Shown: positions 2 through 39,148, counted from the stretch's first letter. The stretch: DNA of 64,000 nt from Clostridia bacterium (GCA_017463325.1 JAFTPK010000005.1:7094-71093); one strand, 5' to 3'. The notes: a model not told the origin generated them from the sequence alone. Made by a program: numbers and translations.

Positions 2-298
2 GTGGGGATTCCTAACTACGTAAAAACGATTGGTTCAAATTACTTCGCGGAGTTGGAAGTGGTCGTACAGAAGTTGAAAATGTATTTAATTCTCGACGAT
101 ATACCGATCAAGTATCAGGACAATGTTGCCACTAATGCAAATGTGTCTATTACCGGCGAGAAAGTGATAGTTAAAGGAAATGTTGGACAAGGAAACGAAA
201 CACATAAAGAAACAACAATATCCTTAAACAATTCCGCTGGAGAAAAGAAAAGCGGATTTTTAACTTGGATAAAAAGATTGTTCGGAGGACAAAAATAA
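2..298 (+). CDS. Hypothetical protein, C-terminal 98 aa (5' end outside window)
   Basis: Open frame runs from the window edge. Its TAA stop (296-298) overlaps the mod ATG (298-300) as TAATG, implying translational coupling. No motif recognised. Confidence 0.5.
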   Translation: MGIPNYVKTIGSNYFAELEVVVQKLKMYLILDDIPIKYQDNVATNANVSITGEKVIVKGNVGQGNETHKETTISLNNSAGEKKSGFLTWIKRLFGGQK

Positions 299-3236: not shown

Positions 3237-3244
3237 ATACTTAA

Positions 3245-6331: not shown

Positions 6332-6350
6332 AACTTTAAGGAGGTGTTTT

Positions 6351-7169: not shown

Positions 7170-7181
7170 GCGAGGTTTATT

Positions 7182-7868: not shown

Positions 7869-7889
7869 TTATATTTTAACAAAGAAAAA

Positions 7890-7930
7890 CAATCACTTTC
7901 ACTTTATTAAATGGAAGTGATTGTTTTATT
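7890..7930 (+). terminator. Rho-independent terminator ending the six-gene R-M operon
   Basis: The stem CAATCACTT / AAGTGATTG can be extended by A:T pairs to 13 bp. The loop is 16 nt and is followed by TTTTATT. This is the first hairpin plus T-tract seen downstream of position 1. Confidence 0.6.
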
Positions 7931-7949
7931 CATAAAAAAGTGCTATAAT
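7921..7949 (+). promoter_or_regulatory. Sigma-A-type promoter for the WYL regulator gene
   Basis: -35 TTGTTT (7921-7926), 17-nt spacer, extended -10 TGcTATAAT (7941-7949). It lies 24 nt upstream of the AGGTGG RBS and the ATG at 7973, and overlaps the preceding terminator arm. Confidence 0.5.
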
Positions 7950-7972
7950 GTTGCATAGAAAGGTGGTGAATT

Positions 7973-8953
7973 ATGGCACACGATAGCGAACAAAAAATCA
8001 AGCTCCTTGTCCTTTATGATATACTTTGTCGGCTCACGGACGAAAATCACGCCCTTAATACCGACGAACTCATAGAAGAACTTGGAAAACAAGGAATAAA
8101 AGCGTCCCCGCGAGTGTTAACCCGTGATATTGAATTACTTAACTCTCACGGATACGAGATACTTTCCTACAAGAAAAAATATTACTATTATTACGTTGTT
8201 AATCGTCATTTCGATAGCGCCGAAATAGCCATGCTCGCCGATGTAGTAAAGGCATCGAAATTAAGCTCTGGACAGAAAAGTTCTCTTATAAAGAAGCTCT
8301 CCGATATGGTGGGTAGTTATCAAGCGGAATCCCTTTCAAAACACATTATCAACTGTGATACCCCCAAGCGTTCAAATAGCCATATAATTTATAGCATTGA
8401 CGCGATTGACCGCGCTATAAGCGAAAGAAAAAAAGTTTCATTTCTTTACTATTCGCTTGACGCCAAAAAGAATAAAGTTTATAGAAAAGACGGCAATAGA
8501 TACATAACGAATCCGCTTGTAATGGTCTGGAATAAGGACAACTATTACCTTATTACCTACCCGGATCGACACGACGGAACAACCACCTATCGTATAGACC
8601 GTATGGAAAGCGTTAAGGTTGAAGACGCTGACATTGTTGAGAAAGCGGAATTTGCGAACTTCGATATAGAAAAATATCGCACACAAGTATTCTCTATGTT
8701 TGGTGGCGAGGTTCATACCGTAGAAATGCAGTTCGTCGAAGAAATGATAGACGATATGTATGATAAATTCGGGGAAGAAATCCGTATTATGCCCGGCACA
8801 GACGGAACATTCAGAGTTAAGGTTCCTATTCAAATAAGCCCCACGTTCTTCTCTTGGGTTGCCGGATCCTGCGGAAAGGTTCATATTCTTTCCCCCAGAA
8901 CCATAAACGAACAATTCAAAGAATTTGTTGAAAAGATTAAAAACGCCTATTAA
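7973..8953 (+). CDS. HTH-WYL domain transcriptional regulator (BrxR/CapW/PafBC-like architecture)
   Basis: N-terminal winged HTH (LLVLYDILCRLTDENHALNTDELIEELG...). Central WYL-domain pattern VSFLYYS...NPLVMVWNKDNYYLITYP...TYRIDRMESVKV. A C-terminal extension follows. Confidence 0.8.
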   Translation: MAHDSEQKIKLLVLYDILCRLTDENHALNTDELIEELGKQGIKASPRVLTRDIELLNSHGYEILSYKKKYYYYYVVNRHFDSAEIAMLADVVKASKLSSGQKSSLIKKLSDMVGSYQAESLSKHIINCDTPKRSNSHIIYSIDAIDRAISERKKVSFLYYSLDAKKNKVYRKDGNRYITNPLVMVWNKDNYYLITYPDRHDGTTTYRIDRMESVKVEDADIVEKAEFANFDIEKYRTQVFSMFGGEVHTVEMQFVEEMIDDMYDKFGEEIRIMPGTDGTFRVKVPIQISPTFFSWVAGSCGKVHILSPRTINEQFKEFVEKIKNAY

Positions 8954-9126: not shown

Positions 9127-9723
9127 ATGAGAACCTTAAATGAAAAAACTCTTGCAAAAATGCAAGATTACATAATTGAGTATCAAAAAGAAAAAGGTCT
9201 TTCTCCCAGCTACCGAAACATTATGAAAGCAGTAGGGATGAGTTCGGTTAGTTTAGTTCAACGTTACGTCTTTGAACTTGAGAAGAAAGGTTTAATCCGT
9301 AGGACAAATCTTGGAAACATAGCCACCTTGCCCCAGCTCAAAAGGACTGGAACAACTATGGCCCCTTTGCTCGGAGAAATCGCTTGCGGCGAACCCACTC
9401 ACGCCGTAGAAAATATAGAAGAAAGTTTCCCGTTACCCAAAGCACTATTCGGCGAAGGCGAACTATATATGCTCCGTACTTTCGGCGATAGTATGATTGA
9501 AGTTGGTATCCGAAAAGACGACCTTATCGTTGTGCGAAAACAAGACTACGCAAGTGAAGGCGATATAGTCGTCGCTCTGGCAGACGGAAAAAACACTCTA
9601 AAGCGATATTTTAGAAGAAACGGACAAGTTATTCTTCATCCAGAAAATAGAACTATGAAGGATATAAAGCCCGTTGATTGCCAAATACAAGGTGTGCTTG
9701 TAAGTTGTATCAAAATGTATTAA
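9127..9723 (+). CDS. LexA/CI-like repressor with S24 self-cleaving peptidase domain
   Basis: N-terminal wHTH (YRNIMKAVGMSSVSLVQRYVFELEKKGLI). Ala-Gly-type linker EIACGEP. Catalytic Ser in FGDSMIE and catalytic Lys in NTLKRYF. Confidence 0.85.
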   Translation: MRTLNEKTLAKMQDYIIEYQKEKGLSPSYRNIMKAVGMSSVSLVQRYVFELEKKGLIRRTNLGNIATLPQLKRTGTTMAPLLGEIACGEPTHAVENIEESFPLPKALFGEGELYMLRTFGDSMIEVGIRKDDLIVVRKQDYASEGDIVVALADGKNTLKRYFRRNGQVILHPENRTMKDIKPVDCQIQGVLVSCIKMY

Positions 9724-11547: not shown

Positions 11548-12014
11548 AAAATTTTGAAGTACAACACACCCTGCGCCTTTACGATCCCGACCTTGTGTCC
11601 GCTATCGGTAAAATGCACGAACGCAAAAGCAAGGAATTTCGCAATAAAAACGAATTTCTTACAGAACTCGTGAAACTCGGTCTTATGGAAATGCAGAAAC
11701 GCGAAGCGGCTAAAATCGCTGACCTACCGCCTACCGATGCGACCACGCCAAAGCCCGAATGTGCCGATACCTTGAAAGAAATCTATGAGATTTTGGACGC
11801 TGTTTCTAAATATATCTACACACAGTTCAAATCCCTTTACGTAAACCAACGTGTAGTGGAACGTCTCATGTCTTCTATCTATCGTCAGCTTCAGGAAATG
11901 CACCACGAGGACACCGCTACCATACGCAATGCCGACGCCGGATTCTATGACGATCTCCCCGAACGCTTTGAGAAAATCATAGTCAATCTCAAGAACACCT
12001 ACGGTCTTAAATGA
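11544..12014 (+). CDS. Putative relaxosome accessory protein (RHH/MobC-like position)
   Basis: ATGA overlaps with both neighbours. FRNKNEFLTELVKLGL resembles ribbon-helix-helix accessory proteins found upstream of relaxase genes. The assignment rests mainly on position. Confidence 0.35.
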   Translation: MKNFEVQHTLRLYDPDLVSAIGKMHERKSKEFRNKNEFLTELVKLGLMEMQKREAAKIADLPPTDATTPKPECADTLKEIYEILDAVSKYIYTQFKSLYVNQRVVERLMSSIYRQLQEMHHEDTATIRNADAGFYDDLPERFEKIIVNLKNTYGLK

Positions 12015-13237
12015 GTTCTCCGAATGTAGTATGTCAAATCTATTTTTTGGACAACGAAAAATCCCTTGCAAAAAACCCTTTGCGAGAAGAAAAATACGGT
12101 AAAAAAAGGAGGTTCTATTCGTGTAAAAACGCAAAATACAACTACGTGGATTACGTGCAGGACGGCTCGCAAAAATCCCTTGATTACGTCGATTATTCAG
12201 GCAATAGCGAAAAGAGTTCGGGCGTATTCAATGCAGACGGCCTTTTAACAAAGGAGCAGCGCAAAGCCCTAAAGCATGATTTACGCACTACGGATAGTGT
12301 GATATGGCACGGCTTTATATCCTTTACCGAAGACTTCGGCAATCTATATTGTAACGACTACGAATCCGCTTACCGAATGATGAAAACGGAATTTCCGCGA
12401 TTTTTGAAATCCGCAGGGCTTAACCCCGATAATGTGGTCTGGTATGCCGGATTACACGAAAATACGGATAATCGCCATATACACTTTTCATTTTTTGAAA
12501 AACAGCCGACAAAATATCGCGCACGCAGTAAAAATCTGCATTTCTCAAACGGAAAGCTCCCATATCACAGTATAGAGCAATTCAAACTCCGCACCGAGCA
12601 AAAATTGACCGATTCTACGGCACAGTTAAAACTCGCCCGAAAACAACTTACGGAATCCACGAAAAACGTGCTATTTTCAGCGCAAAGCCCTTTGAAATAC
12701 AACAGAGAGGTTCAAACCCTTATGCTTCGCTTGCTTGAGGATTTGCCCACTACGGGAAGATTGTCCTACGATAGCGAAAATATGGCTCCGTTTCGTCCGC
12801 AGATACAGGAAATAGTGAACTGTGTTATACGGTCAAACCGAAATACATACCAAGCATACGTTGATTTTTGCCGTGTTATATCCGACAAAGATAAGGACAC
12901 ACTTCGTATCCTTACGAACCTAAAAATCAAACCTGAACATTGGGATAGGTTTCTAATATCAGACAAATATATGGATGACCTTTATCGTCGGCTCGGCAAT
13001 CAGGTAATAAACTCTCTACGTGTTTACAAAGGCAAACTTAAGCCCACAAAATCCCGTCTCGCCAATAAGCGAATACGGCGCGGTGTCCGTACCGGTCTTC
13101 TTGCCTATTGTGTTAAACTCAATGCTATTGTGGAAACCGAAACCCAAGAAGCATTTGAAGAATATTACCGCAAAATCCAAGAACAAGATACCGAAAACGA
13201 TATTATGAAGGAGGAAATGCTTTACGAAATGGAATAA
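12011..13237 (+). CDS. Relaxase/mobilisation nuclease (MOBP-like)
   Basis: Histidine triad LHENTDNRHIHFSFFE (HxDxxxxHxH-type) about 150 aa from the N-terminus. Sits immediately upstream of the coupling-protein gene. Confidence 0.8.
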   Translation: MSSPNVVCQIYFLDNEKSLAKNPLREEKYGKKRRFYSCKNAKYNYVDYVQDGSQKSLDYVDYSGNSEKSSGVFNADGLLTKEQRKALKHDLRTTDSVIWHGFISFTEDFGNLYCNDYESAYRMMKTEFPRFLKSAGLNPDNVVWYAGLHENTDNRHIHFSFFEKQPTKYRARSKNLHFSNGKLPYHSIEQFKLRTEQKLTDSTAQLKLARKQLTESTKNVLFSAQSPLKYNREVQTLMLRLLEDLPTTGRLSYDSENMAPFRPQIQEIVNCVIRSNRNTYQAYVDFCRVISDKDKDTLRILTNLKIKPEHWDRFLISDKYMDDLYRRLGNQVINSLRVYKGKLKPTKSRLANKRIRRGVRTGLLAYCVKLNAIVETETQEAFEEYYRKIQEQDTENDIMKEEMLYEME

Positions 13238-13271: not shown

Positions 13272-15440
13272 GTGTGCTATCTGTTCGGATTTGTACTTAA
13301 CTGCGTGATAACTCACGATTTTACATTCCGATTTGACGCTAAACTGCTGATCGACGGCGAAACTTTTATCTACACAGGACTGTTTTGCCTTATAGCCGTA
13401 TTGATAGTGCTGTTCTACTACTATAAACACTTCTGGTTATTCAACAGTAAAAACGTCATGCGCGGAAACAAAGGCGACAAAAGAATTGACGTCAATCTCG
13501 AACAGGCACGATTCCAAAACGAACGGGAAATAAACGAGAACTTTACAAGAGTGGAATACGGCGAACTTAAAGAAAAAGAAATCGTCGGTATTCCTATCAA
13601 AGCAGAACAGGAGAAAGAAAAATTTTATGTCAACTTCGCCCCAAACGCCCACACGCTCGTTATCGGTACCACCGGATCCGGTAAAACAACCACGTTCATC
13701 AATCCAACGGTGCAGATATTGTCCCAGAGCAAAGCCAAACCGTCCATGCTGCTGTCCGATCCAAAGGGAGAATTGTATGCTTTGCACGCAAAATCTCTCC
13801 AAGATAAAGGATACGAGGTCAAAGTCCTTGACCTGCGAAACCCATTCAACAGCATTAAATGGAACCCACTTGAACGTCCTTTCCTAATGTATCAGCGTAT
13901 GCTCCACTTGGAAGACGAGGTTCGGGTGGATGAAGAAAATGGAACCTACCTTTTTGACGGAAACGCTTATAGCGAACCCGACGAGCTTAATTCTGCCGTT
14001 CAGGTCAAAAAACAGCAAATTTACGATCAGGTTTACGAGGACTTGCACGACATGATTACCGTCCTTTGCCCCATTACCAACAAGAATGAACCTATTTGGG
14101 AAAGCGGCGCCAAGAATTTTATTTTGGCTATCGCTATCGCAATGCTTGAGGATTCCGAAAACTCCGAACTCGGTATGACTGTGGACAAATATAATTTCTA
14201 TAATCTCACGAAAATAGCCACAAACACCGAGAACGATTGTGAAGAACTCTTGCGATACTTTCAGGGACGTGGGGATCTGTCAAAAGCGTTATCGCTCTCA
14301 AAGCAGGTGTTGGATTCCGCAGAAAAGACGCGCGGTTCGTATCTCTCCACAATGTTTGACAAGCTCAATATGTTTGCAGACCTTTCGCTTTGCTCTCTTA
14401 CGTCGGCAAACGAAATCGCCTTTGCAGATATGGCGGAAAAGCCAATCGCATTATTTCTGCAAATCCCGGACGAGAAGGAAACCCGTCACACGCTCGCGGC
14501 AATGGTAATGCTGCAAGCATATAAGGAACTCGTAGCCAAAGCCAACGAATACGACAACCTATCCCTGCCGCGCAGCGTTTATTTTCTTATGGACGAATTT
14601 GGCAATCTGCCCGCCGTTCATAAGCTCGAACAAATGGTAACGGTAGGTCGAAGCCGTAATATATGGCTCTGCCTTGTTATCCAATCTTACGCCCAGCTTG
14701 CAAAGGTTTATGACGATAAATCTGCTGATATTATCCGTAGCAACTGTAATATTCAAATCTTTATCGGTACTTCCGATCCAAAGACCATTGAAGAATATTC
14801 AAAGCGTTGCGGAAATTACACCGTAATTACCCGAAATGTCGGATATAACACGGTTAAGGCAGACGATATAAACAGCAACGCGTCCATAAAAGAGCGCCCG
14901 CTGATTTATCCGTCGGAACTCGCGCAACTCAATCGCCCCGGCAATATGGGTAATGCCGTCGTTACAGTATTCGGCTATATGCCCGTAATGAGTAAATACA
15001 CACCCAGCTATGCGTGTACGGCTTACACTCTTGAGAAAACGCTCCAGCGATTGAATGTGGGTAGGTACTTCAACGAAAGCAAAGTTTTCTACAATATGAA
15101 ACGGCGAAACGAAATCGTTATCCCCAAGCGCCCGCCACGCAAGCCCGGTGGTAACGGCGGTATGAATATCGTTCGTCAAATGGACGGTGTTAAGGAACAC
15201 GTCAAAGAACAAATTGAACGGTCTTTCAATTACGAAATCCTATCCGATGAAGAAAAGATAGAACTTCTTAATTTGATTGACAAACAAGCGTTCCTACGGG
15301 CAAAAGAAATCCTTGAGGAAGCCGCTAAAAAAGCAATGGCTCTCAATCAGGATCATCTTATGGATACCTTTGAAAATCTATTCAAAAAACTAAACTGGCT
15401 CCAGCTTAACTATTCGGGTGGAGCGACACGAAATCAATAA
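13272..15440 (+). CDS. Type IV coupling protein (VirD4/TraG-like)
   Basis: N-terminal TM helices, Walker A GTTGSGKTT and Walker B-like VYFLMDEFGNL. Size is about 720 aa. The track start is a GTG; the true start is uncertain by a few codons. Confidence 0.85.
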   Translation: MCYLFGFVLNCVITHDFTFRFDAKLLIDGETFIYTGLFCLIAVLIVLFYYYKHFWLFNSKNVMRGNKGDKRIDVNLEQARFQNEREINENFTRVEYGELKEKEIVGIPIKAEQEKEKFYVNFAPNAHTLVIGTTGSGKTTTFINPTVQILSQSKAKPSMLLSDPKGELYALHAKSLQDKGYEVKVLDLRNPFNSIKWNPLERPFLMYQRMLHLEDEVRVDEENGTYLFDGNAYSEPDELNSAVQVKKQQIYDQVYEDLHDMITVLCPITNKNEPIWESGAKNFILAIAIAMLEDSENSELGMTVDKYNFYNLTKIATNTENDCEELLRYFQGRGDLSKALSLSKQVLDSAEKTRGSYLSTMFDKLNMFADLSLCSLTSANEIAFADMAEKPIALFLQIPDEKETRHTLAAMVMLQAYKELVAKANEYDNLSLPRSVYFLMDEFGNLPAVHKLEQMVTVGRSRNIWLCLVIQSYAQLAKVYDDKSADIIRSNCNIQIFIGTSDPKTIEEYSKRCGNYTVITRNVGYNTVKADDINSNASIKERPLIYPSELAQLNRPGNMGNAVVTVFGYMPVMSKYTPSYACTAYTLEKTLQRLNVGRYFNESKVFYNMKRRNEIVIPKRPPRKPGGNGGMNIVRQMDGVKEHVKEQIERSFNYEILSDEEKIELLNLIDKQAFLRAKEILEEAAKKAMALNQDHLMDTFENLFKKLNWLQLNYSGGATRNQ

Positions 15441-20209: not shown

Positions 20210-21700
20210 ATGGACTGGTTTTTAGGGTGGTTCTACGAACTCCTATACATACTCCAAAAAAGTATCTGTTATATCATCGACTTTATCCGTGAAATCTTCT
20301 TAAAACTGGTCGGAATTGATACCGTAAAAATTGACGGTGAAGAACACGATTTGTTGACATACTTTATGACAACCGAGGGTGTGCGAAATGCCTTTTTAGG
20401 TGTGTTTCTTATAGGTGTAATTCTCCTATTTTTATTCGTCGGTATAGCCATAATCAAAAGCGAAGCCGCCGATCCCCAACACAAGAAAACTAAAGGTCAG
20501 ATTGTCACAAAATCCCTGCAAAGTTTCATAATTTTTCTGCTCATACCGTTTATACTTCTCGCGGGAATTACGCTCACAAACGTCGTTATGTGCGGAATAA
20601 ATGCGAGTATGTCAGGAGCCGCCGTTTCAGGTAGCACGAACGTTTCGCTCGGCGGACAAATTCTCGTAACAAGTGGCTATGACGCCTATATCGGTCCTGC
20701 CGGTGAGCGCCCCGCCATAGAGCAAATGTTCATTACGGGAAGATTGAATTATAACAGTCTTTCCGTCGTCGAACAGTATTACGACCTTGCGGATATGAAT
20801 TTCTTTGTCGGGCTTGCAAGCTCGCTTGTAATCCTGATTATGTTCGTACTCAGCACGATTTCCTTTATCCAAAGAATTTTTGATATAGTCTTGCTTTATA
20901 TCGTCTCTCCCGTTTCGGTATCCACGATACCCCTTGACGACGGACAACGCTTCAAACTTTGGCGAGAAATGATAATTTCAAAGGTTCTCGGTTGCTATGG
21001 AATAGTGCTTGCTATGAACCTGTTTTTCCTTATCATTCCAAAGGTTGCGGGAATAGATTTCTTCGACAGTAATTTCAAAAACGGAATCGTGCAACTGCTA
21101 TTCGTTATCGGTGGTGCCTTTGCCGTTACAAAAGCAAATATGGTTATAGCCCAGCTTACCGGCAATAATGCGGGCGGACAAGAAGCCCAGCAAATGCTCG
21201 CCAACATTCAAACCGGTGCATATATGGCAAGAGCCGTCACGGGAACTGCGGGTACAGCCGCAGGTATGCTTATAGGCGGAACCGATTTTCTTTCCAACAG
21301 AAAACGCGGTGCGGGATTTTTTGATAACGTATCATCTGCAATCCATTCGCAAAGGAACAGACACAACGTCCAGCAAGCAACGGCTACGAGCGACACGGCG
21401 GCGAAGCCCACGAAAGCACAAATGGTCGGCAACGCAGCCAAAGGTGCCTTACGACTTGCGACTATGCCTATCGGCGTTATGAAAGACCTTTTGCAAGGCG
21501 GTGTTATTACTGCCGGTAAAAACTTCATACCCCGTGTGAGAAACGTTATTGCAGGTACTACCTTTGTTAACCGCGCGGACTACGTTCAAAAGGCGGAACA
21601 AAAGGCAACCGACAGCACGAAGACCGATGAAGCGGATACGACAACTACGGGCGGGGATACGTCCGAATCTGATGCGCCAAAGGAGGATAAAACAGAATGA
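20210..21700 (+). CDS. Polytopic membrane protein (VirB6-like position)
   Basis: At least 6 predicted TM helices by eye, with a hydrophilic T/D/E-rich tail. It lies between the small 2-TM protein and the VirB4-like ATPase, with an ATGA overlap to the next gene. Confidence 0.45.
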   Translation: MDWFLGWFYELLYILQKSICYIIDFIREIFLKLVGIDTVKIDGEEHDLLTYFMTTEGVRNAFLGVFLIGVILLFLFVGIAIIKSEAADPQHKKTKGQIVTKSLQSFIIFLLIPFILLAGITLTNVVMCGINASMSGAAVSGSTNVSLGGQILVTSGYDAYIGPAGERPAIEQMFITGRLNYNSLSVVEQYYDLADMNFFVGLASSLVILIMFVLSTISFIQRIFDIVLLYIVSPVSVSTIPLDDGQRFKLWREMIISKVLGCYGIVLAMNLFFLIIPKVAGIDFFDSNFKNGIVQLLFVIGGAFAVTKANMVIAQLTGNNAGGQEAQQMLANIQTGAYMARAVTGTAGTAAGMLIGGTDFLSNRKRGAGFFDNVSSAIHSQRNRHNVQQATATSDTAAKPTKAQMVGNAAKGALRLATMPIGVMKDLLQGGVITAGKNFIPRVRNVIAGTTFVNRADYVQKAEQKATDSTKTDEADTTTTGGDTSESDAPKEDKTE

Positions 21701-24297
21701 GGTTGATACCCCGTAACACGAAAGTAAAATTACAATTCTATAAAGGCATTACGCTCCCGGATATATTTCTCGGTTTGGCAGGGCTTGCGCTTGTGGCTAT
21801 CACGCTCTCAAGCAACTTTTCGTTTAAGTACCTGCTTGCCGTAGGAATTATCTGTGTATTTGCCCCACTTTTTCTTTCCGTAGGTAATGAGAGAATTTAT
21901 ATGTCCGTCGTGTATATGTTCAGACACTTGTTCGGGCGTAAACGCTACACGAAAGACGGAAAAGAAGGCGCTACCGTTGAGAGCATTACCCCTTATGAGA
22001 AAATCGAAAACGGTCTTGTAAAGAATAAAGACGGCACCTATACGGGTGTGGTGGAAATCAAGCCCATTGAGTTCCGGCTCCTTGCCGGTGGCAAGCAAGA
22101 TTACCTTATCGAAGGTATCCTTGCAAACGCGCTCGGTGCCGTCAACCTTTCACAAGAAGCGGAAATTATAAAACTCGATAAGGAACTCAATCTTGACAAG
22201 CAACTTCAAGCCGAACTTGACCGAATCCAAGACCTTATCGCCGCCGAAGAAAACGGTTCTATCACACACGAGGAATACGTTGCGAGAGTAAACGTAATCG
22301 AAGACCGCATTATGCTGATCGACACGCTCAACAGCGAAAGCCGTGTTACTTATAGCGCATATTATATCGCTGTTCACGATACTTCCGCAAACCTGCTCCA
22401 CGATACGCTTGCGTATATGAAACAGCTTTTGCAATCCGGCAGTATCGAAAGCAACATTCTCGACAATGGCGAACTTGCCGAATTTCTGCGTCTTTCCTAC
22501 GGAAAACAATCCGTTGAAAACGGCGAAATCAAAGAAGTAAAATTCGGTCTCAATGGAACTTATCAGGACGATAAAAAACTCTCGCATTTTGCCGTATGCG
22601 GCTATCCCTTAAAGGTTGCGAACGCTTGGGGTGAAGACCTTTTTGACATACCGAACACAAAGGTTGTTATGAAGCTCAAGCCCGTAGAAAAAAGCAAAGC
22701 AATCCGTAGGATTGACAATGCGATTATAGAGTTATCGACACGCGGGAAAGGCAAAGCCAGCAAGATAATTGACAACACAACCCACGTTGAAACGCTTTCC
22801 GATCTTCTTGTTCGCTTACAGAACGATAATGAAACCTTGTTCGACGTCACGCTCATAATTACAGCTTACGACGAAAACGGCAAAGCCGACGTAAAAAAGC
22901 GTGTTCGTAGCAAACTCCGCGAGAACGGATTTTCAGCAAATGAAATGTTCGGCAGACAAGCCGACGCATACCTTACGTCAACCATAACGGCTTATGACAA
23001 AGTATATATTTCTCGCGGTATTCAGGCAACGTCCGTAGCCGCTTGTTTCCCCTTTGTGAGCAATGCCGTTATGGACGAGAAAGGACTTCTGCTCGGTGAG
23101 AACAAACTACCCGTATTTGTGGACTTTTTTAAGCGAGATTCCGAATTTGTAAACAGTAATATGATTATCATCGGCAAGCCCGGTAGCGGAAAGAGTTACG
23201 CTACGAAAACCTTGCTTACGCATCTTGCTTCTGGTGGAACGAAAATCTTTATTTTGGATCCTGAAAACGAGTACACGAAGTTAACGGAGAGCCAAAACGG
23301 AAAAGTTCTTGATACCGCATCGGCAAAGTTCGGTAAAATAAATCCTTTTCACGTTATCGTAGCACTTGACGATGAAAATGAGGACGGCAGCCGAAACAGC
23401 TATTTCTCACACCTGCAATTCTTGGAAGAATTTTATAAAATCTCTATCCCCGGTCTATCGTCCGATTGCTTGGAAATGCTGAACCGCTTGACTACCGAAA
23501 TTTATGCAGCCAAAGGCATCGACGAAGAAAGCCATTTTGAGAAGTTAAAGCCCACCGATTACCCGACCTTTGACGATCTCGCGCAGTTGGTGGATGAGCG
23601 TTTACTTTCCGAAGGCGACGACTATAACCGTTCTTGCTATAAAATCTTGTCAAACTATTTGTCAAAATTCCGTAGTGGCGGACGAAATTCTAACCTTTGG
23701 AATGGTCCGACAAGTCTTAACGCAGACGCAAATTTCGTATGTTTTAACTTCCAAAAATTGATTGCAAACCGCAATAATACGGTGGCTAACGCACAAATGC
23801 TTTTGCTTTTGAAATGGCTTGAGAACGAGGTCATAAAAAACCGTGATTATAACCTTATCAATGGTGCAAACCGCAAGATTGCAGTTGTAATCGACGAGGC
23901 GCATTTGTTTGTGGACGAACGTTATCCGATAGCACTTGACTTTATGTTCCAGCTTGCAAAGCGTATCCGTAAATACGGCGGTATGCAAATCGTCGTAACT
24001 CAATCCCTTAAAGATTTTGCGGGAACACCCGAAACGGCGCGAAAGTCTATGGCAATTATCAACGTTTCGCAGTATTCGCTTATCTTTTCTTTGCCACCGA
24101 ACGACATGACCGAACTTTGCAAACTCTATGAAAAGGCGGGACAAATAAACTCTGCCGAAAGCGAAAATATCGTACACAATCCGCGAGGTTGTGCTTTCCT
24201 TATTTCTTCGCCAGAAAAACGCACGAATATAAGGATTGTCGCTACGCCCTACGTGGAAAGTCTTTTTGACGAAAATACAAATAAACAGGAGAACTAA
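21697..24297 (+). CDS. VirB4-like conjugal transfer ATPase
   Basis: Two N-terminal TM helices, Walker A GKPGSGKSY and Walker B VVIDEAHLF. The ~865-aa size is typical of Gram-positive VirB4/TraE homologues. Confidence 0.85.
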   Translation: MRLIPRNTKVKLQFYKGITLPDIFLGLAGLALVAITLSSNFSFKYLLAVGIICVFAPLFLSVGNERIYMSVVYMFRHLFGRKRYTKDGKEGATVESITPYEKIENGLVKNKDGTYTGVVEIKPIEFRLLAGGKQDYLIEGILANALGAVNLSQEAEIIKLDKELNLDKQLQAELDRIQDLIAAEENGSITHEEYVARVNVIEDRIMLIDTLNSESRVTYSAYYIAVHDTSANLLHDTLAYMKQLLQSGSIESNILDNGELAEFLRLSYGKQSVENGEIKEVKFGLNGTYQDDKKLSHFAVCGYPLKVANAWGEDLFDIPNTKVVMKLKPVEKSKAIRRIDNAIIELSTRGKGKASKIIDNTTHVETLSDLLVRLQNDNETLFDVTLIITAYDENGKADVKKRVRSKLRENGFSANEMFGRQADAYLTSTITAYDKVYISRGIQATSVAACFPFVSNAVMDEKGLLLGENKLPVFVDFFKRDSEFVNSNMIIIGKPGSGKSYATKTLLTHLASGGTKIFILDPENEYTKLTESQNGKVLDTASAKFGKINPFHVIVALDDENEDGSRNSYFSHLQFLEEFYKISIPGLSSDCLEMLNRLTTEIYAAKGIDEESHFEKLKPTDYPTFDDLAQLVDERLLSEGDDYNRSCYKILSNYLSKFRSGGRNSNLWNGPTSLNADANFVCFNFQKLIANRNNTVANAQMLLLLKWLENEVIKNRDYNLINGANRKIAVVIDEAHLFVDERYPIALDFMFQLAKRIRKYGGMQIVVTQSLKDFAGTPETARKSMAIINVSQYSLIFSLPPNDMTELCKLYEKAGQINSAESENIVHNPRGCAFLISSPEKRTNIRIVATPYVESLFDENTNKQEN

Positions 24298-33381: not shown

Positions 33382-33573
33382 ATGCACGAACTTTTTAAGG
33401 ATTATCCCGACGTTGTGAGCGTTGAACAAGTAACCGAAATGCTCCACGTCAGCTTATCGTTTGCATATCGCCTTTTGCGTAGCGGAGAACTGCCCGCCAA
33501 AAAGGTTGGTAGCAAATACATTATAGCAAAAAAGAGCGTAATTGCTTTTGTTTGCCCGGAGGAAAAGAAATGA
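33382..33573 (+). CDS. xis: Excisionase-family / MerR-like HTH DNA-binding protein
   Basis: 63 aa. VVSVEQVTEMLHVSLSFAYRLLRSGELPAKKVGSKYII fits the excisionase-type HTH. ATGA overlap with the integrase gene. Confidence 0.6.
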   Translation: MHELFKDYPDVVSVEQVTEMLHVSLSFAYRLLRSGELPAKKVGSKYIIAKKSVIAFVCPEEKK

Positions 33574-35132
33574 CAGGAAGATTAGCGGTCAAAGGCGGTA
33601 AATACTACGTTGTAATTTCCTATAAAGACGAGAACGGAAAATATAAAAATAAATGGGTTGCCACCGGTCTTGACGAGAAAAATAACAAACGTGCTGCTAC
33701 CGATATGATGCGTGATATTGTCGCCCGTTACGAAAGCGGAGAATTATCTTTCACAGGACAAAAACAAGCTACACCTACACGCGAAGAATCAGACAGCCCG
33801 CTTTTCTCCGATTATCTCTTTGAATGGTTGAGAATGGCGAAACCAAATCTGCAACAATCCACATATAGCGGCTACTTACGCCTTACGAAAGTGATTGCCG
33901 CCTATTTTGAAGAAAAGGGCTTGAGGTTGGACGAAATAAAGCCCAAGCACATCCAAGAATTTTACACCTATTTGCAAGAGGAACAAGGCAAATCCAAGCA
34001 GGTATGCCACCATTATCATATCGTCATACACAGAGCGTTACAAATTGCTTATCGCTCCGATATGATACAGACCAACCCGGCAGATAAAATCGAAAGACCT
34101 AAATTCCAAAAACACAAAGCCAAGTTTTACACGGCAGAACAGGTAAAAACCTTGTTCAAAGAACTTGAGGGCGATCCCTACGAGCATATTTATAAATTGA
34201 CCGCAATTTACGGTATGCGAAGAAGTGAGGTCGGCGGTCTTCGGTGGAGTTCTATTGATTTTGAGAAAAACACGCTTACACTCGATCACGCAGCGGTTCA
34301 ATGCGAAGTTGACGGTAAACGAACCATTGTAATTAAAGATACAATGAAAAATCAATCAAGTTTGCGAACCTTGCCCCTACTGCCCGTAGTGCGTGATATG
34401 CTCTTAAAACTCAAAGCCGAACAGCAAGAGCGTATTCAAAAATACGGTACTTACTATAATCCGAATTATCTGGACTATGTGTGCGTGGACGAAACGGGAA
34501 ACCTTATTCGTCCCGATACGTTGACGACACATTTCAAAACCTTTTTGGTTCGTCATAATCTGCCTGTAATCCGCTTGCACGAATTACGCCATAGTTGCGC
34601 CAGCATTCTTATCGCTTGCGGCGTGAGTATGAAGGCCGTTCAGGAATGGTTAGGTCACAGCACTTTCAGTACCACTGCCGACATTTATAGCCACTTGAAC
34701 TATTCTTCCAAGCTCGGTATCGCCGAAACGCTTTCCGACGTATTTAGCGGTAAACCCGTTCCCGTTGACCAAACAAATCCCGACGCTATGGCAACGATAC
34801 AGAAAATCTTTTATGCCAGCGACATTGAAGCCGCCCCCAAAGTTGCGGAACCCGTTGTTACGGAATACGAAAGTTGGGATGAAGACGCCGACGACGAGGA
34901 CGGTGCCGTGTTCGTTGATACAAGCGATAGCGATGAAGAACTAAAAGACGAACCTATCGAATCCGTCTTTCCCGAACTACCCGCCGATAGTGTGTCGGAA
35001 TTCAAAAAAGCAAAGGAAGAAATGAAACGCTTGGGCTTTGAAACGCTCGATGAATACTTTGAATATCTCGACTATAAAGCTCGTATGGAGCAAAGAAAAA
35101 ACACGGCAAGTTCGGGTGGAACTGCCATGTAA
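33570..35132 (+). CDS. int: Tyrosine recombinase (integrase) with N-terminal arm-type DNA-binding domain and acidic C-terminal extension
   Basis: N-terminus GRLAVKGGKYYVVISYKDENGKYKNKWVATGL (AP2-like arm-binding domain). Catalytic R (YGMRRSE), HELRHS, LGHS and nucleophile Y in ADIYSHL. About 120 extra D/E-rich residues follow the catalytic Tyr. Confidence 0.9.
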   Translation: MTGRLAVKGGKYYVVISYKDENGKYKNKWVATGLDEKNNKRAATDMMRDIVARYESGELSFTGQKQATPTREESDSPLFSDYLFEWLRMAKPNLQQSTYSGYLRLTKVIAAYFEEKGLRLDEIKPKHIQEFYTYLQEEQGKSKQVCHHYHIVIHRALQIAYRSDMIQTNPADKIERPKFQKHKAKFYTAEQVKTLFKELEGDPYEHIYKLTAIYGMRRSEVGGLRWSSIDFEKNTLTLDHAAVQCEVDGKRTIVIKDTMKNQSSLRTLPLLPVVRDMLLKLKAEQQERIQKYGTYYNPNYLDYVCVDETGNLIRPDTLTTHFKTFLVRHNLPVIRLHELRHSCASILIACGVSMKAVQEWLGHSTFSTTADIYSHLNYSSKLGIAETLSDVFSGKPVPVDQTNPDAMATIQKIFYASDIEAAPKVAEPVVTEYESWDEDADDEDGAVFVDTSDSDEELKDEPIESVFPELPADSVSEFKKAKEEMKRLGFETLDEYFEYLDYKARMEQRKNTASSGGTAM

Positions 35133-35145
35133 AAAGCATAAAAAT

Positions 35146-35167
35146 AAGCCCCGAAAATTCGGGGCTT
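35146..35167. terminator. Hairpin between int and tRNA-Ser (bidirectional terminator candidate)
   Basis: GCCCCG-AAAATT-CGGGGC, extendable to the AAGCCCCGAA / TTCGGGGCTT palindrome. It directly abuts the tRNA 3' end. T-tracts are weak. Confidence 0.45.
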
Positions 35168-35257
35168 GGCGGAGGGTGTGAGATTCGAACTCACGTGGGG
35201 TTTCAGCCCCAAATGCTTTTCAAGAGCACCTCGTTATGACCGCTTCGATAACCCTCC
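35167..35257 (-). tRNA. tRNA-Ser (anticodon UGA), complete, with encoded CCA
   Basis: The minus-strand sequence GGAGGGT-TA-TCG-AAGCGGTCATAA-CGA-G-GTGCT-CTTGAAA-AGCAT-long variable arm (TGGGG CTGAAA CCCCA)-GTGAG-TTCGAAT-CTCAC-ACCCTCC-G-CCA folds into a class II cloverleaf. The acceptor, anticodon and T stems are fully paired. Confidence 0.9.
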
Positions 35258-35292
35258 GTGTTAAAAATATTCAATTTTCAGTTTGATTTTTG

Positions 35293-35473
35293 TTTCTACA
35301 GATTTCAAAATCTCAAAATAAATTTGTAGAAATTTTTGTAGAAAATCTGCGTTCCCAAAAAAGTTTGTAGAAAATCGGTTGATTTTAGACCGCTTTCATT
35401 ATACCATAAATCTTCAAGGATTTCAAGGAGTTTTGCCCACTTACGATAGGGGATTTGAAAAAGTTTGTAGAAA
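35293..35473 (+). repeat. Cluster of TTTGTAGAAA motifs (4 direct, 1 inverted)
   Basis: Direct copies at 35323-35332, 35335-35344, 35364-35373 and 35464-35473; the last two share AAAAAGTTTGTAGAAA. Inverted TTTCTACA at 35293-35300. The region is non-coding and AT-rich, and lies between the intact tRNA and the tRNA fragment. Confidence 0.8.
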
Positions 35474-35508
35474 CGGACGGAAATTTGAACTACTTGATTT
35501 CAACTATG

Positions 35509-35548
35509 TTTCAAGACCGCCTCGTTATGACCGCTTCGATATTCCTGC
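35509..35548 (-). pseudogene. 5' half of a second tRNA-Ser(UGA), truncated immediately after the anticodon loop
   Basis: The minus strand reads GCAGGAA-TA-TCG-AAGCGGTCATAA-CGA-G-GCGGT-CTTGAAA, then unrelated sequence. Positions 8-29 (22 nt, 35520-35541) are identical to 35229-35250 of the intact tRNA. The acceptor and anticodon-stem strands differ from the intact tRNA. Confidence 0.6.
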
Positions 35549-35569
35549 AACAATTGTTACGATATAGCT

Positions 35570-35598
35570 ATTATACCGCAACAAAAAAAATTTGTCAA
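35570..35598 (-). promoter_or_regulatory. Perfect consensus sigma-A promoter directed into the truncated tRNA-Ser
   Basis: On the minus strand: TTGACA (35598-35593), exactly 17 nt, then TATAAT (35575-35570). The -10 ends 21 nt upstream of the first base of the tRNA fragment (35548). Confidence 0.7.
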
Positions 35599-35604
35599 CG
35601 CCTT

Positions 35605-36312
35605 TTAAAGGATTGTCAACAATTCTTTTAAACTCTTCACCTCGTACGTTGGCTTGATCTCCGTTTCATTCCTCTCTCCTCTTCGATTTAACCAACAACT
35701 GTCAATGCCGCTCAAATTCGCCCCCCTAACGTCCGAAGAAAGCGAATCGCCCACCATTAAACACTCCTCCCTTTTTACTCGCATTTCCTCTAAAATCCTA
35801 TCAAAGAAGGCAGGCAGGGGCTTGATTACACCCATTTCCTCCGAAATATAAATCCCCTTAAAATATTTTGCAAGCTCGCTTAAACGCCCGTATTGCATTT
35901 CCGTCATACCGTTCGTCGCCACGCAAAGCTCGTATTTCCTAACCAACGCGTCTAGCGTTTCTTTCGCCCCCTCGCAAAGCACGGCGGGCGCCTCCAAGCT
36001 TTTGGCAAATTCCTCCCCGACCTCTAACGCACTCGCAAAACAAGAAAACCGCGCGAAAATCCCCTCGAAAATGCGTTTCACGTGGGTATGGTACAAAGCA
36101 TGGTACTCCCTCTGAATGTACTCGGTATGGACGTCGTTAAGCCCAGCAGCCGTCCAAGCGGCACTACTGATTGCATTACATTCGTCAAGCACCTCTTCCG
36201 TCGGCTCGATCCCCACCTTGGGCAGCACCTTTTTCAGCGCTTCCCGTTCGTCTTTTGTATAGTCGATCAGCGTATGATCGGCATCAAAAATCACAACCTT
36301 ATACTTTTTCAA
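35605..36312 (-). CDS. HAD-superfamily hydrolase (subfamily IA-like)
   Basis: Motif I VIFDADHTLID, motif II-like VATNG and motif IV MVGDSLSSDVRGA. Confidence 0.75.
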   Translation of the reverse strand: MKKYKVVIFDADHTLIDYTKDEREALKKVLPKVGIEPTEEVLDECNAISSAAWTAAGLNDVHTEYIQREYHALYHTHVKRIFEGIFARFSCFASALEVGEEFAKSLEAPAVLCEGAKETLDALVRKYELCVATNGMTEMQYGRLSELAKYFKGIYISEEMGVIKPLPAFFDRILEEMRVKREECLMVGDSLSSDVRGANLSGIDSCWLNRRGERNETEIKPTYEVKSLKELLTIL

Positions 36313-36318
36313 TCCCTC

Positions 36319-36525
36319 TCACCAGTCCTGTTTTTTCAAGGATTTATCCTTCACGTCGTCGTAATAATCAAAATAACGCCGCTTAAATTCCTCTTTCGTT
36401 AAGGGCTTTTCCCCCTGCTCTTGCATCACCCGCAAAAGCTCCTCTATTTCCTCAGGGGAAAAATCGGCAAGCTCCGCCTCCTCTCCGTACGTTTCCAAAA
36501 ATTTCAAAATATCTAATTCCGACAT
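36319..36525 (-). CDS. Small acidic hypothetical protein
   Basis: 68 aa. Its ATG overlaps the upstream stop (TAATG on the minus strand) and it ends 6 nt before the HAD start, so it appears operonic. Confidence 0.5.
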   Translation of the reverse strand: MSELDILKFLETYGEEAELADFSPEEIEELLRVMQEQGEKPLTKEEFKRRYFDYYDDVKDKSLKKQDW

Positions 36526-37367
36526 TACAATTCTATCTCCTTATGCTCTCCGCAAACGGGCACCGTCAACGCCGTAAACCCGATTTCTTTCAGCATTTTT
36601 ACGACGTACTCCCGCTTATCGAGAATACGCTCCGCAAAATGCGCGTCGCTCCCAAACGATACCTTTCTGCCGCTCAGCTCGAAATACCTCTCCAAAACAT
36701 CTCTATCGGGAAGCGTCGGCGAAACGCCAAGCTTGTTCGAGCTATTCACTTCAAGAATTTTTCCTCTTTCAACCACCGCGCGAAGAACACTATCCCAAGC
36801 CTCAGAAAACTCCGCGTAGGTCGCAGACTTGTCCGCGTAAGGAGCGTAACGGGTGCAATAGCCTACGTGGCCGACAATATCAAACTGGAAGCTCGCCTCA
36901 ATCCCACGCTTAACAAGAGCGAAATACTCCTCATACACCTCTTTTTTCGGGCGCAAGCTTCCGTCCGCAAGGCGATAAGGCACGCCGCTATGATAGTCTT
37001 TCCCTTTCAGCGTATGCACGCTGTTAATGACAAAATCGGGACGATACTTTTGAATAAAAGCACGATATGCCCTCTCCGCCTCCTCGTCATCCGTATAGCC
37101 AAACTCCGCGCCGACAAGCACTTCAATGCGACCATGGTACTCCCTTTTCTTTTCACGTGCGACGCGAAAATACTCGTCTGCGTCTGTGAAATAAGGGGTG
37201 TCGTACGCCGTTTCTCCGAACAACTGCATATCGTAGTCGATATGCTCGGAAATGCCGTAATAGCGTACGCCACGGCTCTCCGCCCCTGCCAGCATTGCCG
37301 AAATATCGTCTTTTCCGTCAGGGGAAAAGGCGGTATGCGTATGAAGATCAGTCAATATCTTTTCCAT
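36525..37367 (-). CDS. Histidinol-phosphatase, PHP family (HisJ/HisK-type)
   Basis: DLHTHTAFSPDG at the N-terminus, ISEHIDY and C-terminal FGSDAH. Start moved to the ATG at 37367 (MEKILTDLHTHT). The longer track ORF adds an implausible N-terminus. Confidence 0.7.
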   Translation of the reverse strand: MEKILTDLHTHTAFSPDGKDDISAMLAGAESRGVRYYGISEHIDYDMQLFGETAYDTPYFTDADEYFRVAREKKREYHGRIEVLVGAEFGYTDDEEAERAYRAFIQKYRPDFVINSVHTLKGKDYHSGVPYRLADGSLRPKKEVYEEYFALVKRGIEASFQFDIVGHVGYCTRYAPYADKSATYAEFSEAWDSVLRAVVERGKILEVNSSNKLGVSPTLPDRDVLERYFELSGRKVSFGSDAHFAERILDKREYVVKMLKEIGFTALTVPVCGEHKEIEL

Positions 37368-37552
37368 AATACTCCTATGATCAAACCGAAACCGTATTCT
37401 TTCTTCCAAACTTGACAAAAAACGGGAAAAACCCGCGATTTTTTCCTTATTGTTCCTGTATTTCCGTTCTTCTCCTATTGCCCTTAGCCGCATTGCCCTT
37501 TATAATGGGGAAGTGGACTTTTCCGCAAAATCAAAACCAAGGAACAATATGT

Positions 37553-38419
37553 ATGAAAAAATCGTTAAAAACTACTTTGGCGGCACTTCTCGCCGCTTTT
37601 ACACTTTTTCCCCTTGCCGCGTGCGGCAATGACAAGCCCGAAACGGAAACCGGCTCCTCGTCGGAAATCAGTTCTTCTCTGCCCGAAGAACCCGAAACCC
37701 AGACGCCTTCTCAGCCTACCACACCCGAAGAGCCTGAAACACAGACGCCCTCAAAGCCCGAACAACCCGTCGCACCTACTGTCACCTACGACAACTATTT
37801 CCGTTGCACCTCCGACCGCGTCAACCTGCGCGCGGGCGCAGGCACCTCGTACGCCGTGCTTGGCAGCGCGGAAAAGGGCACCATGTACGCGATCATAGGA
37901 AAAACGGGCAACTGGTACAAAACCTATTACAAAGGAAAAACGGCTTACTTTTACTCAGAATATGCCGCCGTTTTCTCCATTGAAGAATCCAAAAACGAAG
38001 AGGTAGAAGAAGTGCTTTCTCAGGCCTATAAGCTGATCGGTGTGCCCTACGTTTACGGTGCCGTACGACTGCACAACGGAAAAGGAAAATTCCTTTCGGG
38101 GTTCACAGCGCAAAAATTCGACTGCTCTTCCCTCGTACAATACGTATACTATTACGGTGCGGACGCGCTATTAAACACGACGACGCGCACGCAAATCAAG
38201 CAAGGAAAATACGTCGCTCCAAGCGATTTAAAACGCGGCGACTGTATCTTCTTCACCAACGACGAACGGCGTTATAATACGGGCATTGAACGGGTAGGTC
38301 ACGTCGCCATTTACCTCGGCGACAATTATATCTTGCACACGGCGTCCGATTACGCCCGTATCGAACAAATCTCCTCCAAGCGTTGGAACTATTACATAGA
38401 AGCTAGACGCTTTTTGTAA
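37553..38419 (+). CDS. Lipoprotein with SH3b domain and NlpC/P60 peptidoglycan endopeptidase domain
   Basis: Lipobox signal MKKSLKTTLAALLAAFTLFPLAAC. P/E/T-rich linker with a repeated EEPETQTPS unit. SH3b-like RVNLRAGAGTSYAVLGSAEKGTMYAIIGKTGNWYK. NlpC/P60 catalytic FDCSSLVQYVY plus GHVAIYLG...ILH. Confidence 0.8.
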   Translation: MKKSLKTTLAALLAAFTLFPLAACGNDKPETETGSSSEISSSLPEEPETQTPSQPTTPEEPETQTPSKPEQPVAPTVTYDNYFRCTSDRVNLRAGAGTSYAVLGSAEKGTMYAIIGKTGNWYKTYYKGKTAYFYSEYAAVFSIEESKNEEVEEVLSQAYKLIGVPYVYGAVRLHNGKGKFLSGFTAQKFDCSSLVQYVYYYGADALLNTTTRTQIKQGKYVAPSDLKRGDCIFFTNDERRYNTGIERVGHVAIYLGDNYILHTASDYARIEQISSKRWNYYIEARRFL

Positions 38420-38422
38420 AGC

Positions 38423-39148
38423 TTATTCCTCTCGTTGCGGAAGCGAACACGCCGTCACAAAATACACCGCCCGCGCGCCCGCGTTTTTCAAGATCCTTGC
38501 GCACTCGCCGCCCGTTGCACCCGTGGTCATAATATCGTCCACGACGATCACCACCCGATTATCGCAAAGTTTCCGCTTTCTCACGCGGATACTACCGCGA
38601 ATTCGCTCCCGCCGCTCCTGCGCCGTTCTCTTTTTCTGATCCCCGTCCCCGATTTTCACAAGAACGTCCGCCGCATACTCGTAGCCCGTCAGCGCGGCAA
38701 TTCTTTTCGCTAAATCCTCCGCTTGATTAAACCGACGAGTCTTTTTCTTCCGCTCGGTGATAGGCACGGCGACCAAAATCGGCGGTTCTAAAAAGGAAAG
38801 CTCTGAAAGCTTTTTTGCCATCTCCTCCGCAAAGAAAGCCGCCAAGTATCGCTCGCCCTGCTTGAAGCGATTGATCATACGCGCGGCGTCGCCGTGATAA
38901 ATAAAGGGAGAAACCGCCCTTTCAAACGCAGGCGGCTCCTTTTTACAGCCAAGACAAAGCCCCTCGGCGCGCAAAGCGCGGCCGCATTTTTCGCATTGCC
39001 GTTTTTCATTTTTGAAAACGGTCTTTTGGCAATGCTCACATAGCCTTTGGCTGGGATATTCAAAGACCTCCCGCCCGCAGCCATCGCAAGTAAACCCCGC
39101 CGTATTGTTATTTAATAGCCATTCCTTGACCTTGGTAAACACGCCCAT
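38423..39148 (-). CDS. comFC: ComF family protein (phosphoribosyltransferase domain)
   Basis: N-terminal double CxxC zinc finger (CDGCG...CEHC, CEKCG...CLGC) and PRTase motif VVIVVDDIMTTGAT. Confidence 0.75.
   Translation of the reverse strand: MGVFTKVKEWLLNNNTAGFTCDGCGREVFEYPSQRLCEHCQKTVFKNEKRQCEKCGRALRAEGLCLGCKKEPPAFERAVSPFIYHGDAARMINRFKQGERYLAAFFAEEMAKKLSELSFLEPPILVAVPITERKKKTRRFNQAEDLAKRIAALTGYEYAADVLVKIGDGDQKKRTAQERRERIRGSIRVRKRKLCDNRVVIVVDDIMTTGATGGECARILKNAGARAVYFVTACSLPQREE

Follow-up and report, generated by a model that had tools for sequence, protein, structure and literature searches.

What does it mean when a bacterial genome carries, beside an intact tRNA gene, the front half of a different gene for the same tRNA, still standing behind a promoter? 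The question is raised by a 64,000-nucleotide stretch of DNA from a Clostridia bacterium (GCA_017463325.1, JAFTPK010000005.1:7094-71093; hereafter the window, meaning the whole stretch analysed), in which a complete tRNA-Ser(UGA) gene and a half gene of this kind lie next to each other. Here we argue, with considerable confidence, that a 42-kb integrative conjugative element (ICE) of a Christensenellales-like gut Clostridium is inserted in the host gene for tRNA-Ser(UGA), at the anticodon loop. A first-pass annotation of the window had proposed that an ICE entered this loop and stranded the host promoter and 5' half; the complementary halves, the 7-bp core and the corresponding locus of a relative (L037) all agree with that proposal. 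At the level of nucleotide sequence, the reading is carried by the split gene, its 7-bp core, the complementarity of the two halves, the empty site of the relative, and the conservation of the arrangement throughout a family of elements; the host, in turn, likely needs the spare tRNA that the element brings.

A tRNA-Ser(UGA) gene in two halves

The half gene occupies positions 35509-35548 on the minus strand, where it reads GCAGGAA-TA-TCGAAGCGGTCATAACGA-G-GCGGT-CTTGAAA (acceptor strand, D-arm, anticodon-stem strand and anticodon loop, the loop holding the UGA anticodon); past CTTGAAA it runs on as CATAGTTGAAATC, which is not tRNA-like. The complete gene, 251 bp away, lies at 35167-35257 on the same strand, with the acceptor stem GGAGGGT/ACCCTCC and an encoded CCA. 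It is the single tRNA, tRNA-Ser(tga), that ARAGORN calls in the 64-kb window, and its Rfam score of 51.4 bits exceeds the gathering score of 29. The two genes share 22 identical nucleotides (TATCGAAGCGGTCATAACGAGG, at 35229-35250 and 35520-35541), a similarity returned as 38 nt at 89% identity by a repeat search and as 33 nt at 94% by blastn (E = 3.6e-8), and they differ in their acceptor and anticodon stems. Upstream of the half gene stands the host tRNA promoter, TTGACA-17-TATAAT (35570-35598, minus strand), which matches at 12 of 12 positions, and the G+C fraction along the window is 0.41-0.46 on the left and 0.49-0.56 on the right of the junction. The first-pass annotation had read from the sequence an intact tRNA-Ser(UGA), a fragment that is tRNA-like up to its CTTGAAA loop and whose stems mark it as derived from another tRNA-Ser gene, a perfect promoter, and a GC-richer host composition to the right, and all of these observations are borne out.

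It had further predicted that the left junction, outside the window, would carry the missing 3' half (ACCGC, variable arm, T-arm, TTCCTGC-N-CCA). This half is present on the same contig, 42,088 bp to the left of the fragment. Within the 7.7 kb that lie left of the window (L003; ENA contig k141_384193, 108,885 bp), the minus strand of positions 1098-1153 reads CTTGAAA-ACCGT-TTGGGTGAAAGCCCAC-GGGGG-TTCGAAT-CCCTC-TTCCTGC-G-CCA and is followed by a terminator hairpin. The sequence departs from the prediction by one base, ACCGT for ACCGC, which gives a G-U closing pair, and its acceptor strand TTCCTGC pairs with the GCAGGAA of the fragment. The crossover core of 7 bp, CTTGAAA, coincides with the anticodon loop (tRNA positions 32-38); it stands at 35509-35515 (minus strand), is repeated at L003 1147-1153 and is the sole sequence common to both junctions, the flanking bases differing on either side.

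Neither ARAGORN nor Rfam detects a tRNA in the 5' half alone or at either junction. Joined together, 35509-35548 and L003 1098-1146 form an 89-nt sequence that ARAGORN calls as tRNA-Ser(tga); in 14 of the 80 genome loci returned, an uninterrupted gene matches it from end to end at 100% identity. A junction-spanning 47-nt probe is found uninterrupted in the genomes of at least 80 species, mostly Christensenellales-like metagenome-assembled genomes. Because the fragment and a 3' half 42 kb away rebuild a tRNA that is uninterrupted elsewhere, the fragment is not a chance match. The rebuilt bacterial attachment site (attB) reads GAGGCGGT-CTTGAAA-ACCGTTTGGG.

To the right of the junction, the host flank (35605-39148, minus strand; Pfam) encodes a HAD hydrolase, a PHP-domain protein, an NlpC/P60 protein (on the plus strand) and a phosphoribosyltransferase. 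In the relative L037 this gene order is kept, at 48-76% amino-acid identity, and is followed by a TTGACA-17-TATAAT promoter in the same place and an intact tRNA-Ser(UGA): one uninterrupted tRNA-Ser adjoins the HAD gene, with no fragment or second tRNA there. Judged from its sequence, the L037 locus is the empty site.

These findings bear directly on the classical account of such loci, in which the intact tRNA would be the host gene, with the element at its 3' end, and the fragment an unrelated relic. Insertion of this kind is ruled out by two observations: no repeat of the 3' end of the intact tRNA exists in the 71.7 kb available (L003 1-7733 and the window), and the far junction completes the fragment and not the intact gene. 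The single tRNA of L037, amid the same flanking genes, argues in the same direction, as does the finding, described below, that many unrelated host contexts have received the integrase along with the intact tRNA and the 250-bp arm upstream of it; we therefore attach hardly any weight to this account. The first-pass annotation had asked whether the left junction repeats the 3' end of the intact tRNA, and whether ICE-free genomes already hold fragment and intact gene together; neither is seen, there being no such repeat and a single tRNA-Ser in L037.

We regard as practically nil the probability of an assembly artefact, in which unrelated DNA would have been joined at the shared 22-nt D-arm repeat. 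A short contig of a second sample (L002) does break exactly at the end of that repeat, but the junction lies 5 nt past it, at the anticodon loop, and the complementary half is found exactly where insertion predicts. Three contigs of 50-200 kb carry the HAD gene, and the architecture recurs in 16 independently assembled metagenome contigs.

The conjugative element, its integrase and its arms

The inserted DNA measures 42,088 bp and has a G+C content of 41.9%, compared with 50.6% in the right flank. It occupies positions 1-35508 of the window (plus strand; Pfam, NCBIfam) and extends a further 6,580 bp to the left, and its genes left of the tRNA are on the plus strand. Pfam and NCBIfam identify a LexA/S24-type repressor (9127-9723), a MobL relaxase (12011-13237) and a coupling protein (13272-15440); a VirB4-type ATPase follows at 21697-24297 (NF045975, 553 bits), all on the plus strand, and further genes encode a WYL regulator, two DNA methylases, a primase-polymerase-like protein and restriction-modification-like cargo. 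With relaxase, coupling protein, VirB4-type ATPase and integrase all inside the 7-bp att repeats, the element is, judged by its genes, an integrative conjugative element. It is not a temperate phage: conjugation genes are present, and a PHROGs scan of ten open reading frames without an informative Pfam domain yielded no phage family of known function, structural or otherwise (in Pfam, nine of the ten had no match at E <= 0.001 and one had only a sub-threshold BiPBP_C match).

Among the genes of the element, the VirB4-type ATPase is nearer to the Mbov_0397 family, the transfer ATPases of Mycoplasma ICEs (NF045975, 553 bits), than to the clostridial CD1110 family. Defence-like cargo fills window positions 265-8953 (an N6/N4 methylase, DUF2971, a 1028-aa ResIII helicase with RE_endonuc, and a WYL/WCX regulator), and an SNF2 helicase and DUF4391, just outside the window on the left side, are likewise defence-like.

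The last gene of the element (33570-35132, plus strand) encodes a tyrosine integrase of 520 aa from the called start, or 526 aa from a TTG at 33552 (Pfam Phage_integrase, 7.4e-21, with SAM-like domains), and stops 35 bp before the tRNA. A hairpin terminator at 35146-35167, with a 9-pair stem followed by a T run, is common to the integrase gene on the plus strand and the element tRNA on the minus strand. The structural model of the integrase has an N-terminal three-strand-plus-helix domain (residues 2-55; predicted local distance difference test score around 80), the N-terminus also giving a weak Arm-DNA-bind_4 match (E = 0.007), and its best fold matches (Foldseek) are Tn1549 Int and full-length lambda Int. 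The model suggests an integrase of the heterobivalent type, which would bind arm sites and exchange strands over a 7-bp overlap, and this protein likely catalyses the insertion. In annotated phage and plasmid collections, no integrase relative exceeded 43% identity.

Just inside the left end, the segment L003 1608-3650 encodes a second tyrosine recombinase, of 309 aa, and after it a 154-aa gene flanked by direct repeats of ~210 bp (L003 2529-2736 and 3400-3606) that are 76-79% identical and each contain a perfect hairpin; the whole segment may be a cassette or an inversion system. This recombinase was considered as the integrase and rejected, as the sampled contexts of its homologues (3 contexts, 10 loci) had neither tRNA halves nor similarity to the ends of the element. 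Its homologues are numerous (7,983 matches at E <= 1e-20), and those sampled adjoin genes for leucine-rich-repeat surface proteins, CBASS genes or ordinary chromosomal (metabolic) genes, some being variable cargo.

From the tRNA to the crossover, the right arm of the element (35258-35508, minus strand; the P' arm of attR) contains four direct TTTGTAGAAA boxes, exact in plus-strand writing, at 35323-35332, 35335-35344, 35364-35373 and 35464-35473, and one inverted box at 35293-35302. These four are the only exact TTTGTAGAAA matches in 64 kb, against 0.34 expected, and all fall in the arm (35323-35473). Two further boxes lie at about L003 1327-1346, ~180 bp inside the left end, and both terminal regions, 42 kb apart, contain TTTGTAGA boxes and the word TTTAGACCGCTTT. 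In an alignment of 16 elements the boxes are conserved in position and form the most conserved blocks; the promoter and AAGCGGTC words are conserved as well, and a dyad adjacent to the core is present in most elements. We infer that the TTCTACAA boxes are the arm sites of the integrase. The element DNA beside the core reads CATAGTTGAAATC on one side and TTTTATCACAC on the other (plus strand, left end), and neither is tRNA-like; the attachment site of the element (attP) thus holds no tRNA fragment able to regenerate the target gene at a junction.

The same arm contains a strong promoter that the first-pass annotation had passed over, TTGAAA-17-TATAAT with an extended -10 TG (35398-35426, minus strand; 11 of 12 positions), which faces the element tRNA from within the 251-bp spacer and whose position is conserved across the family alignment. 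No terminator was predicted between the host promoter (35598-35570) and the element tRNA, and the sequence makes read-through from the orphaned host promoter into that tRNA possible, as the first-pass annotation had suggested; the element tRNA is presumably expressed. All differences between it and the host gene at this site are paired stem changes or variable-arm positions, which marks it, as far as sequence can tell, as a foreign orthologue and not a decaying duplicate of the host gene. Similar promoters, AACTCCTTGAAA..17..TGGTATAAT, occur at about L003 1464-1497 (plus strand) and at window 35398-35433 (minus strand), both facing away from the crossover, the left one towards the 309-aa recombinase and cargo and the right one towards the element tRNA.

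Taken together, a mechanism of the following kind can be proposed. An integrase of the lambda/Tn1549 type would recombine the 7-bp overlap CTTGAAA, identical in attP and attB, with the anticodon-stem strands of attB probably acting as inverted core sites and the integrase N-terminal domain probably binding the TTCTACAA boxes of both arms on attP. As attP has no tRNA half at its core, no gene would be regenerated at either junction: the host 5' half and promoter would be stranded at the right end, the 3' half and terminator at the left end, and the foreign, complete tRNA-Ser(UGA), with its own promoter, ~250 bp inside the right end, would take over decoding. Precise excision would restore the host gene, since both halves are undamaged.

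A family of elements that travel with a tRNA gene

When metagenome contigs were scanned with the integrase, 32 loci with 57-81% identity were returned. The arrangement recurs in 16 distinct loci: behind the integrase gene come 0.03-3.2 kb of variable cargo, then, on the opposite strand, an intact tRNA-Ser(UGA), then a spacer of 239-288 bp, and finally the 5' half of a different tRNA-Ser(UGA), which ends at GTCTTGAAA. Overall, the layout is found in 17 related elements (integrases 50-100% identical) in at least 12 distinct host contexts, as judged by differing upstream flanks, and all 17 relatives with a visible right end have the intact tRNA-Ser(UGA). The arm, of about 240-290 bp, is conserved, with its TTCTACAA boxes and promoter. 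An integrase of 50% identity, listed in 157 blocks of the collection, has an identical layout, and the integrase family as a whole gives 3,089 matches at E <= 1e-10. The claim of the first-pass annotation that the element brings its own complete tRNA thus extends to a whole group of relatives, and the complete tRNA, on this comparison of sequences, travels with the element.

The host halves are as varied as their surroundings. Upstream of them lie unrelated flanks with, in most loci, a sigma-70-like promoter (read by eye); their acceptor strands include GCAGGAA, GGAGGAA, GGAGGCA, GGAGGCG, GGAGTGT, GGAGGCT, GGAAGCG and GGAGAGA, among others, and there are three D-arm types; the anticodon-stem strand and loop are the only part in common. 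At least six sequence types occur among the element tRNAs, the cloverleaf being preserved in each. When seven of these tRNAs were aligned with four from hosts, pairing held in 98.6% of the cells of the four standard stems and compensatory changes were present at 14 of 20 pairs, a level that none of 500 shuffles reached; pairing and compensation together indicate that the element tRNA genes are kept functional.

Two loci show the element tRNA itself, or its equivalent, as a target. In L104 the "host" half is an element-type tRNA behind element-type spacer sequence. In L139 an integrase of 391 aa, 43% identical, precedes an intact tRNA-Ser(CGA), beyond which two 5' halves of other tRNA-Ser(CGA) genes are stacked, each ending at CTCGAAA, the outer one behind TTGACG-17-TATAAT. 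The stacked 5' halves of L104 and L139 suggest that elements arriving later use the spare tRNA as their landing pad. From its sequence, L139 is also a case in which the strategy has been retargeted to another isoacceptor, the cargo tRNA switching with the target.

The interval between integrase gene and tRNA varies from 35 bp to 3.2 kb in L093, L096-L099, L101, L104-L109, L112 and L129; its contents differ by element (in L129, for example, a Cap4-type nuclease), and it behaves as a cargo hot spot.

The plasticity of this interval (35 bp to 3.2 kb among relatives) could be taken to mean that two elements are involved, an islet of tRNA and 251-bp arm having entered the loop first and the ICE having landed beside it. 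Nested insertions do occur in the family (L104, L139), and a second recombinase gene is present near the left end. Nevertheless, we consider this history quite improbable: the TTTGTAGA boxes and the TTTAGACCGCTTT word at both ends indicate a single element whose limits are the tRNA halves, tRNA and integrase are not separated by any internal junction or direct repeat, the linkage of integrase, tRNA and arm holds at 50-100% integrase identity, and no association with tRNA halves was seen for the sampled homologues of the 309-aa recombinase.

A different reservation accepts the layout in full and concerns only the role of the spare tRNA, which would be a mere passenger if the host had other tRNA-Ser(UGA) copies or coped without one, with no dependence on the element. 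In its favour, a dead hybrid or truncated tRNA-Ser at the site in L061 and L100 points to another functional copy in those genomes. On the other side, all 17 visible right ends have an intact tRNA of the same anticodon despite turnover of its sequence, with compensatory stem changes; relatives that target tRNA-Ser(CGA) carry tRNA-Ser(CGA), and this match between cargo and target argues against a mere passenger; and the spare tRNA is required in a phage precedent (PMC10865867). We therefore judge the passenger account to be unlikely, though worth keeping in mind, and prefer insertion into the anticodon loop together with replacement of the lost tRNA.

Several observations weigh against this preferred reading. 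The left junction is seen for one element only, the related loci reaching the right end only, and 13 of the 32 metagenome loci show no tRNA in the available sequence (contig end or cargo of more than 4 kb). Neither the predicted attP, GTGTGTGATAAAA-CTTGAAA-CATAGTTGAAATC, nor the core-proximal sequence of the family had a match in IMG/VR, and no excised circle was found there. Beside the integrase gene of the window element no excisionase gene was recognised; more distant relatives have an HTH_17 gene at that position. Finally, the 1.1 kb to the left of the 3' half (L003 1-1097) has 39% G+C and a gene order not shared with relatives, and this flank may be another island.

A 202-aa protein encoded in that flank has a sigma-70 region 4 / helix-turn-helix domain, and the contig ends 846 bp further on. 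A 77% homologue of this protein in L085 lies 4.7 kb from the tRNA-Ser of the L085 genome, in the other orientation.

Other irregular tRNA-Ser loci were seen among the related sequences. Truncated tRNA-Ser-like leaders stand between promoter and intact tRNA-Ser(UGA) in L019, L030, L031, L055, L057, L064, L069, L085 and L108, those of L031 (2230-2620) forming three tandem 132-nt units. Their acceptor strand and D-arm match the downstream gene, the T-arm is missing, and a conserved insert of about 45 nt, GTAAGGAGC..GCGACGGAATAGCGAG..GCGAGCGTC, takes the place of the anticodon loop. The leaders gave no Rfam match and no convincing RNAalifold structure, and their repeated AGCGA/GCGAG words look like protein-binding DNA. 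Found in ~10 ICE-free genomes, they were examined as possible pre-existing combinations of fragment and tRNA and rejected as such, because their acceptor strand is always that of the downstream tRNA and no matching 3' half occurs elsewhere.

The motif of these inserts recurs as GTAAGGAGC..GGAATAGCGA and, in the opposite orientation, abuts the last 21 nt of tRNA-Ser (T-loop CGAAT to CCA) in L060 (about 2368-2430), in three places of L072 and in L100 (5588-5690). In L100 the motif stands just past the integrase gene, where the element tRNA would be expected, and no intact tRNA is called there; the motif may be the end of a second type of insertion that targets tRNA-Ser loops. L061 (1-263, at the start of contig JAGASM010000037.1) has a 5' half GGAGGGT..CTTGAAA, then 130 bp with TTTCTCGCA repeats, and then a hybrid tRNA whose 5' strand GGAGAGT and 3' strand CGCCTGC cannot pair as an acceptor and which ARAGORN does not call. 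This locus looks like the relic of a nested insertion followed by aberrant recombination at anticodon loops.

Known systems and biological meaning

The closest parallel is tRNA-dependent lysogeny, described for the actinobacteriophages Fionnbharth, LeBron, Gaia and others, in which cores of 8-17 bp are used, the target gene is not restored and the phage tRNA is required for lysogeny; the Lj965 prophage of Lactobacillus johnsonii is cited in the same study (Guerrero-Bustamante and Hatfull, mBio 2024; PMC10865867). Each hallmark of that system that can be recognised in sequence is present here: a tyrosine integrase and putative arm-type sites for it, a host tRNA gene that contains attB, a short core (7 bp, against 8-17 bp in the phages) with no tRNA rebuilt at the junctions, and a complete tRNA, with the anticodon of the destroyed gene, carried by the element. 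The differences are that the element here is conjugative (relaxase, coupling protein and VirB4, with no phage structural genes), that its hosts are gut Clostridia, its target is tRNA-Ser and its core exactly the anticodon loop, that the spare tRNA lies in the right arm region with a conserved promoter of its own, and that the spare is reused as a target, with 5' halves stacked. The requirement for the spare tRNA is proven for the phages and inferred here.

The anticodon loop is the commonest crossover site of islands in tRNA genes, and such islands normally carry a restoring tRNA fragment (Islander; PMC4383910); ICEMh1 and ICEPmu1, for example, use the anticodon loop of tRNA-Leu(UUG) and restore the gene (PMC6861422). 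Like these elements and the Islander class 'A', the element described here combines a tyrosine recombinase with a crossover in an anticodon loop flanked by the inverted repeat of the stem. In class A elements, attP contributes a tRNA fragment, leaving a working gene at one junction and one displaced fragment, whereas the present element displaces both halves and brings an entire gene separately. The integrase resembles those of Tn1549/Tn916 and lambda in its best fold matches (6emz, 6emy, 1z1b) and in the order of its N-terminal, core-binding and catalytic domains, but differs in sequence (17-20% identity) and in an extra, poorly predicted C-terminal tail of ~140 aa. Tn916 and Tn1549 insert with little site specificity; the integrase family of the window element is specific for one tRNA loop.

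The destruction and replacement of a tRNA gene as an integration strategy has so far been described for some phages only, and in the literature searched we found no conjugative element with a compensating tRNA, although absence there is not proof. We put about even weight on the broader proposition that tRNA-dependent integration is here recognised for the first time in a family of conjugative elements, that this family is widespread in gut Clostridia, and that it also drives tRNA turnover and addiction. The strategy is now seen outside phages and outside Actinobacteria, conserved in a large conjugative family of human and animal gut Clostridia. Island finders that require an intact tRNA and one displaced 3' fragment would misplace the boundaries of such elements or miss them, and the cassette of integrase, arm and tRNA is a possible integration vector for Christensenellales, much as the phage study proposed for mycobacteria.

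For the elements themselves, the layout suggests a broad host range, as only the anticodon loop region must match: if the reading holds, some 10 bases around the loop, together with a tRNA of their own, would suffice for entry into hosts with diverse tRNA-Ser genes. Once inserted, an element could be stabilised, since its imprecise loss would remove the only working tRNA. The spare tRNA would in turn be the next landing pad, and repeated cycles would leave stacks of promoter-bearing 5' halves and replace host tRNA-Ser genes horizontally, a possible route by which these elements would drive both the turnover of tRNA genes and the addiction of their hosts.

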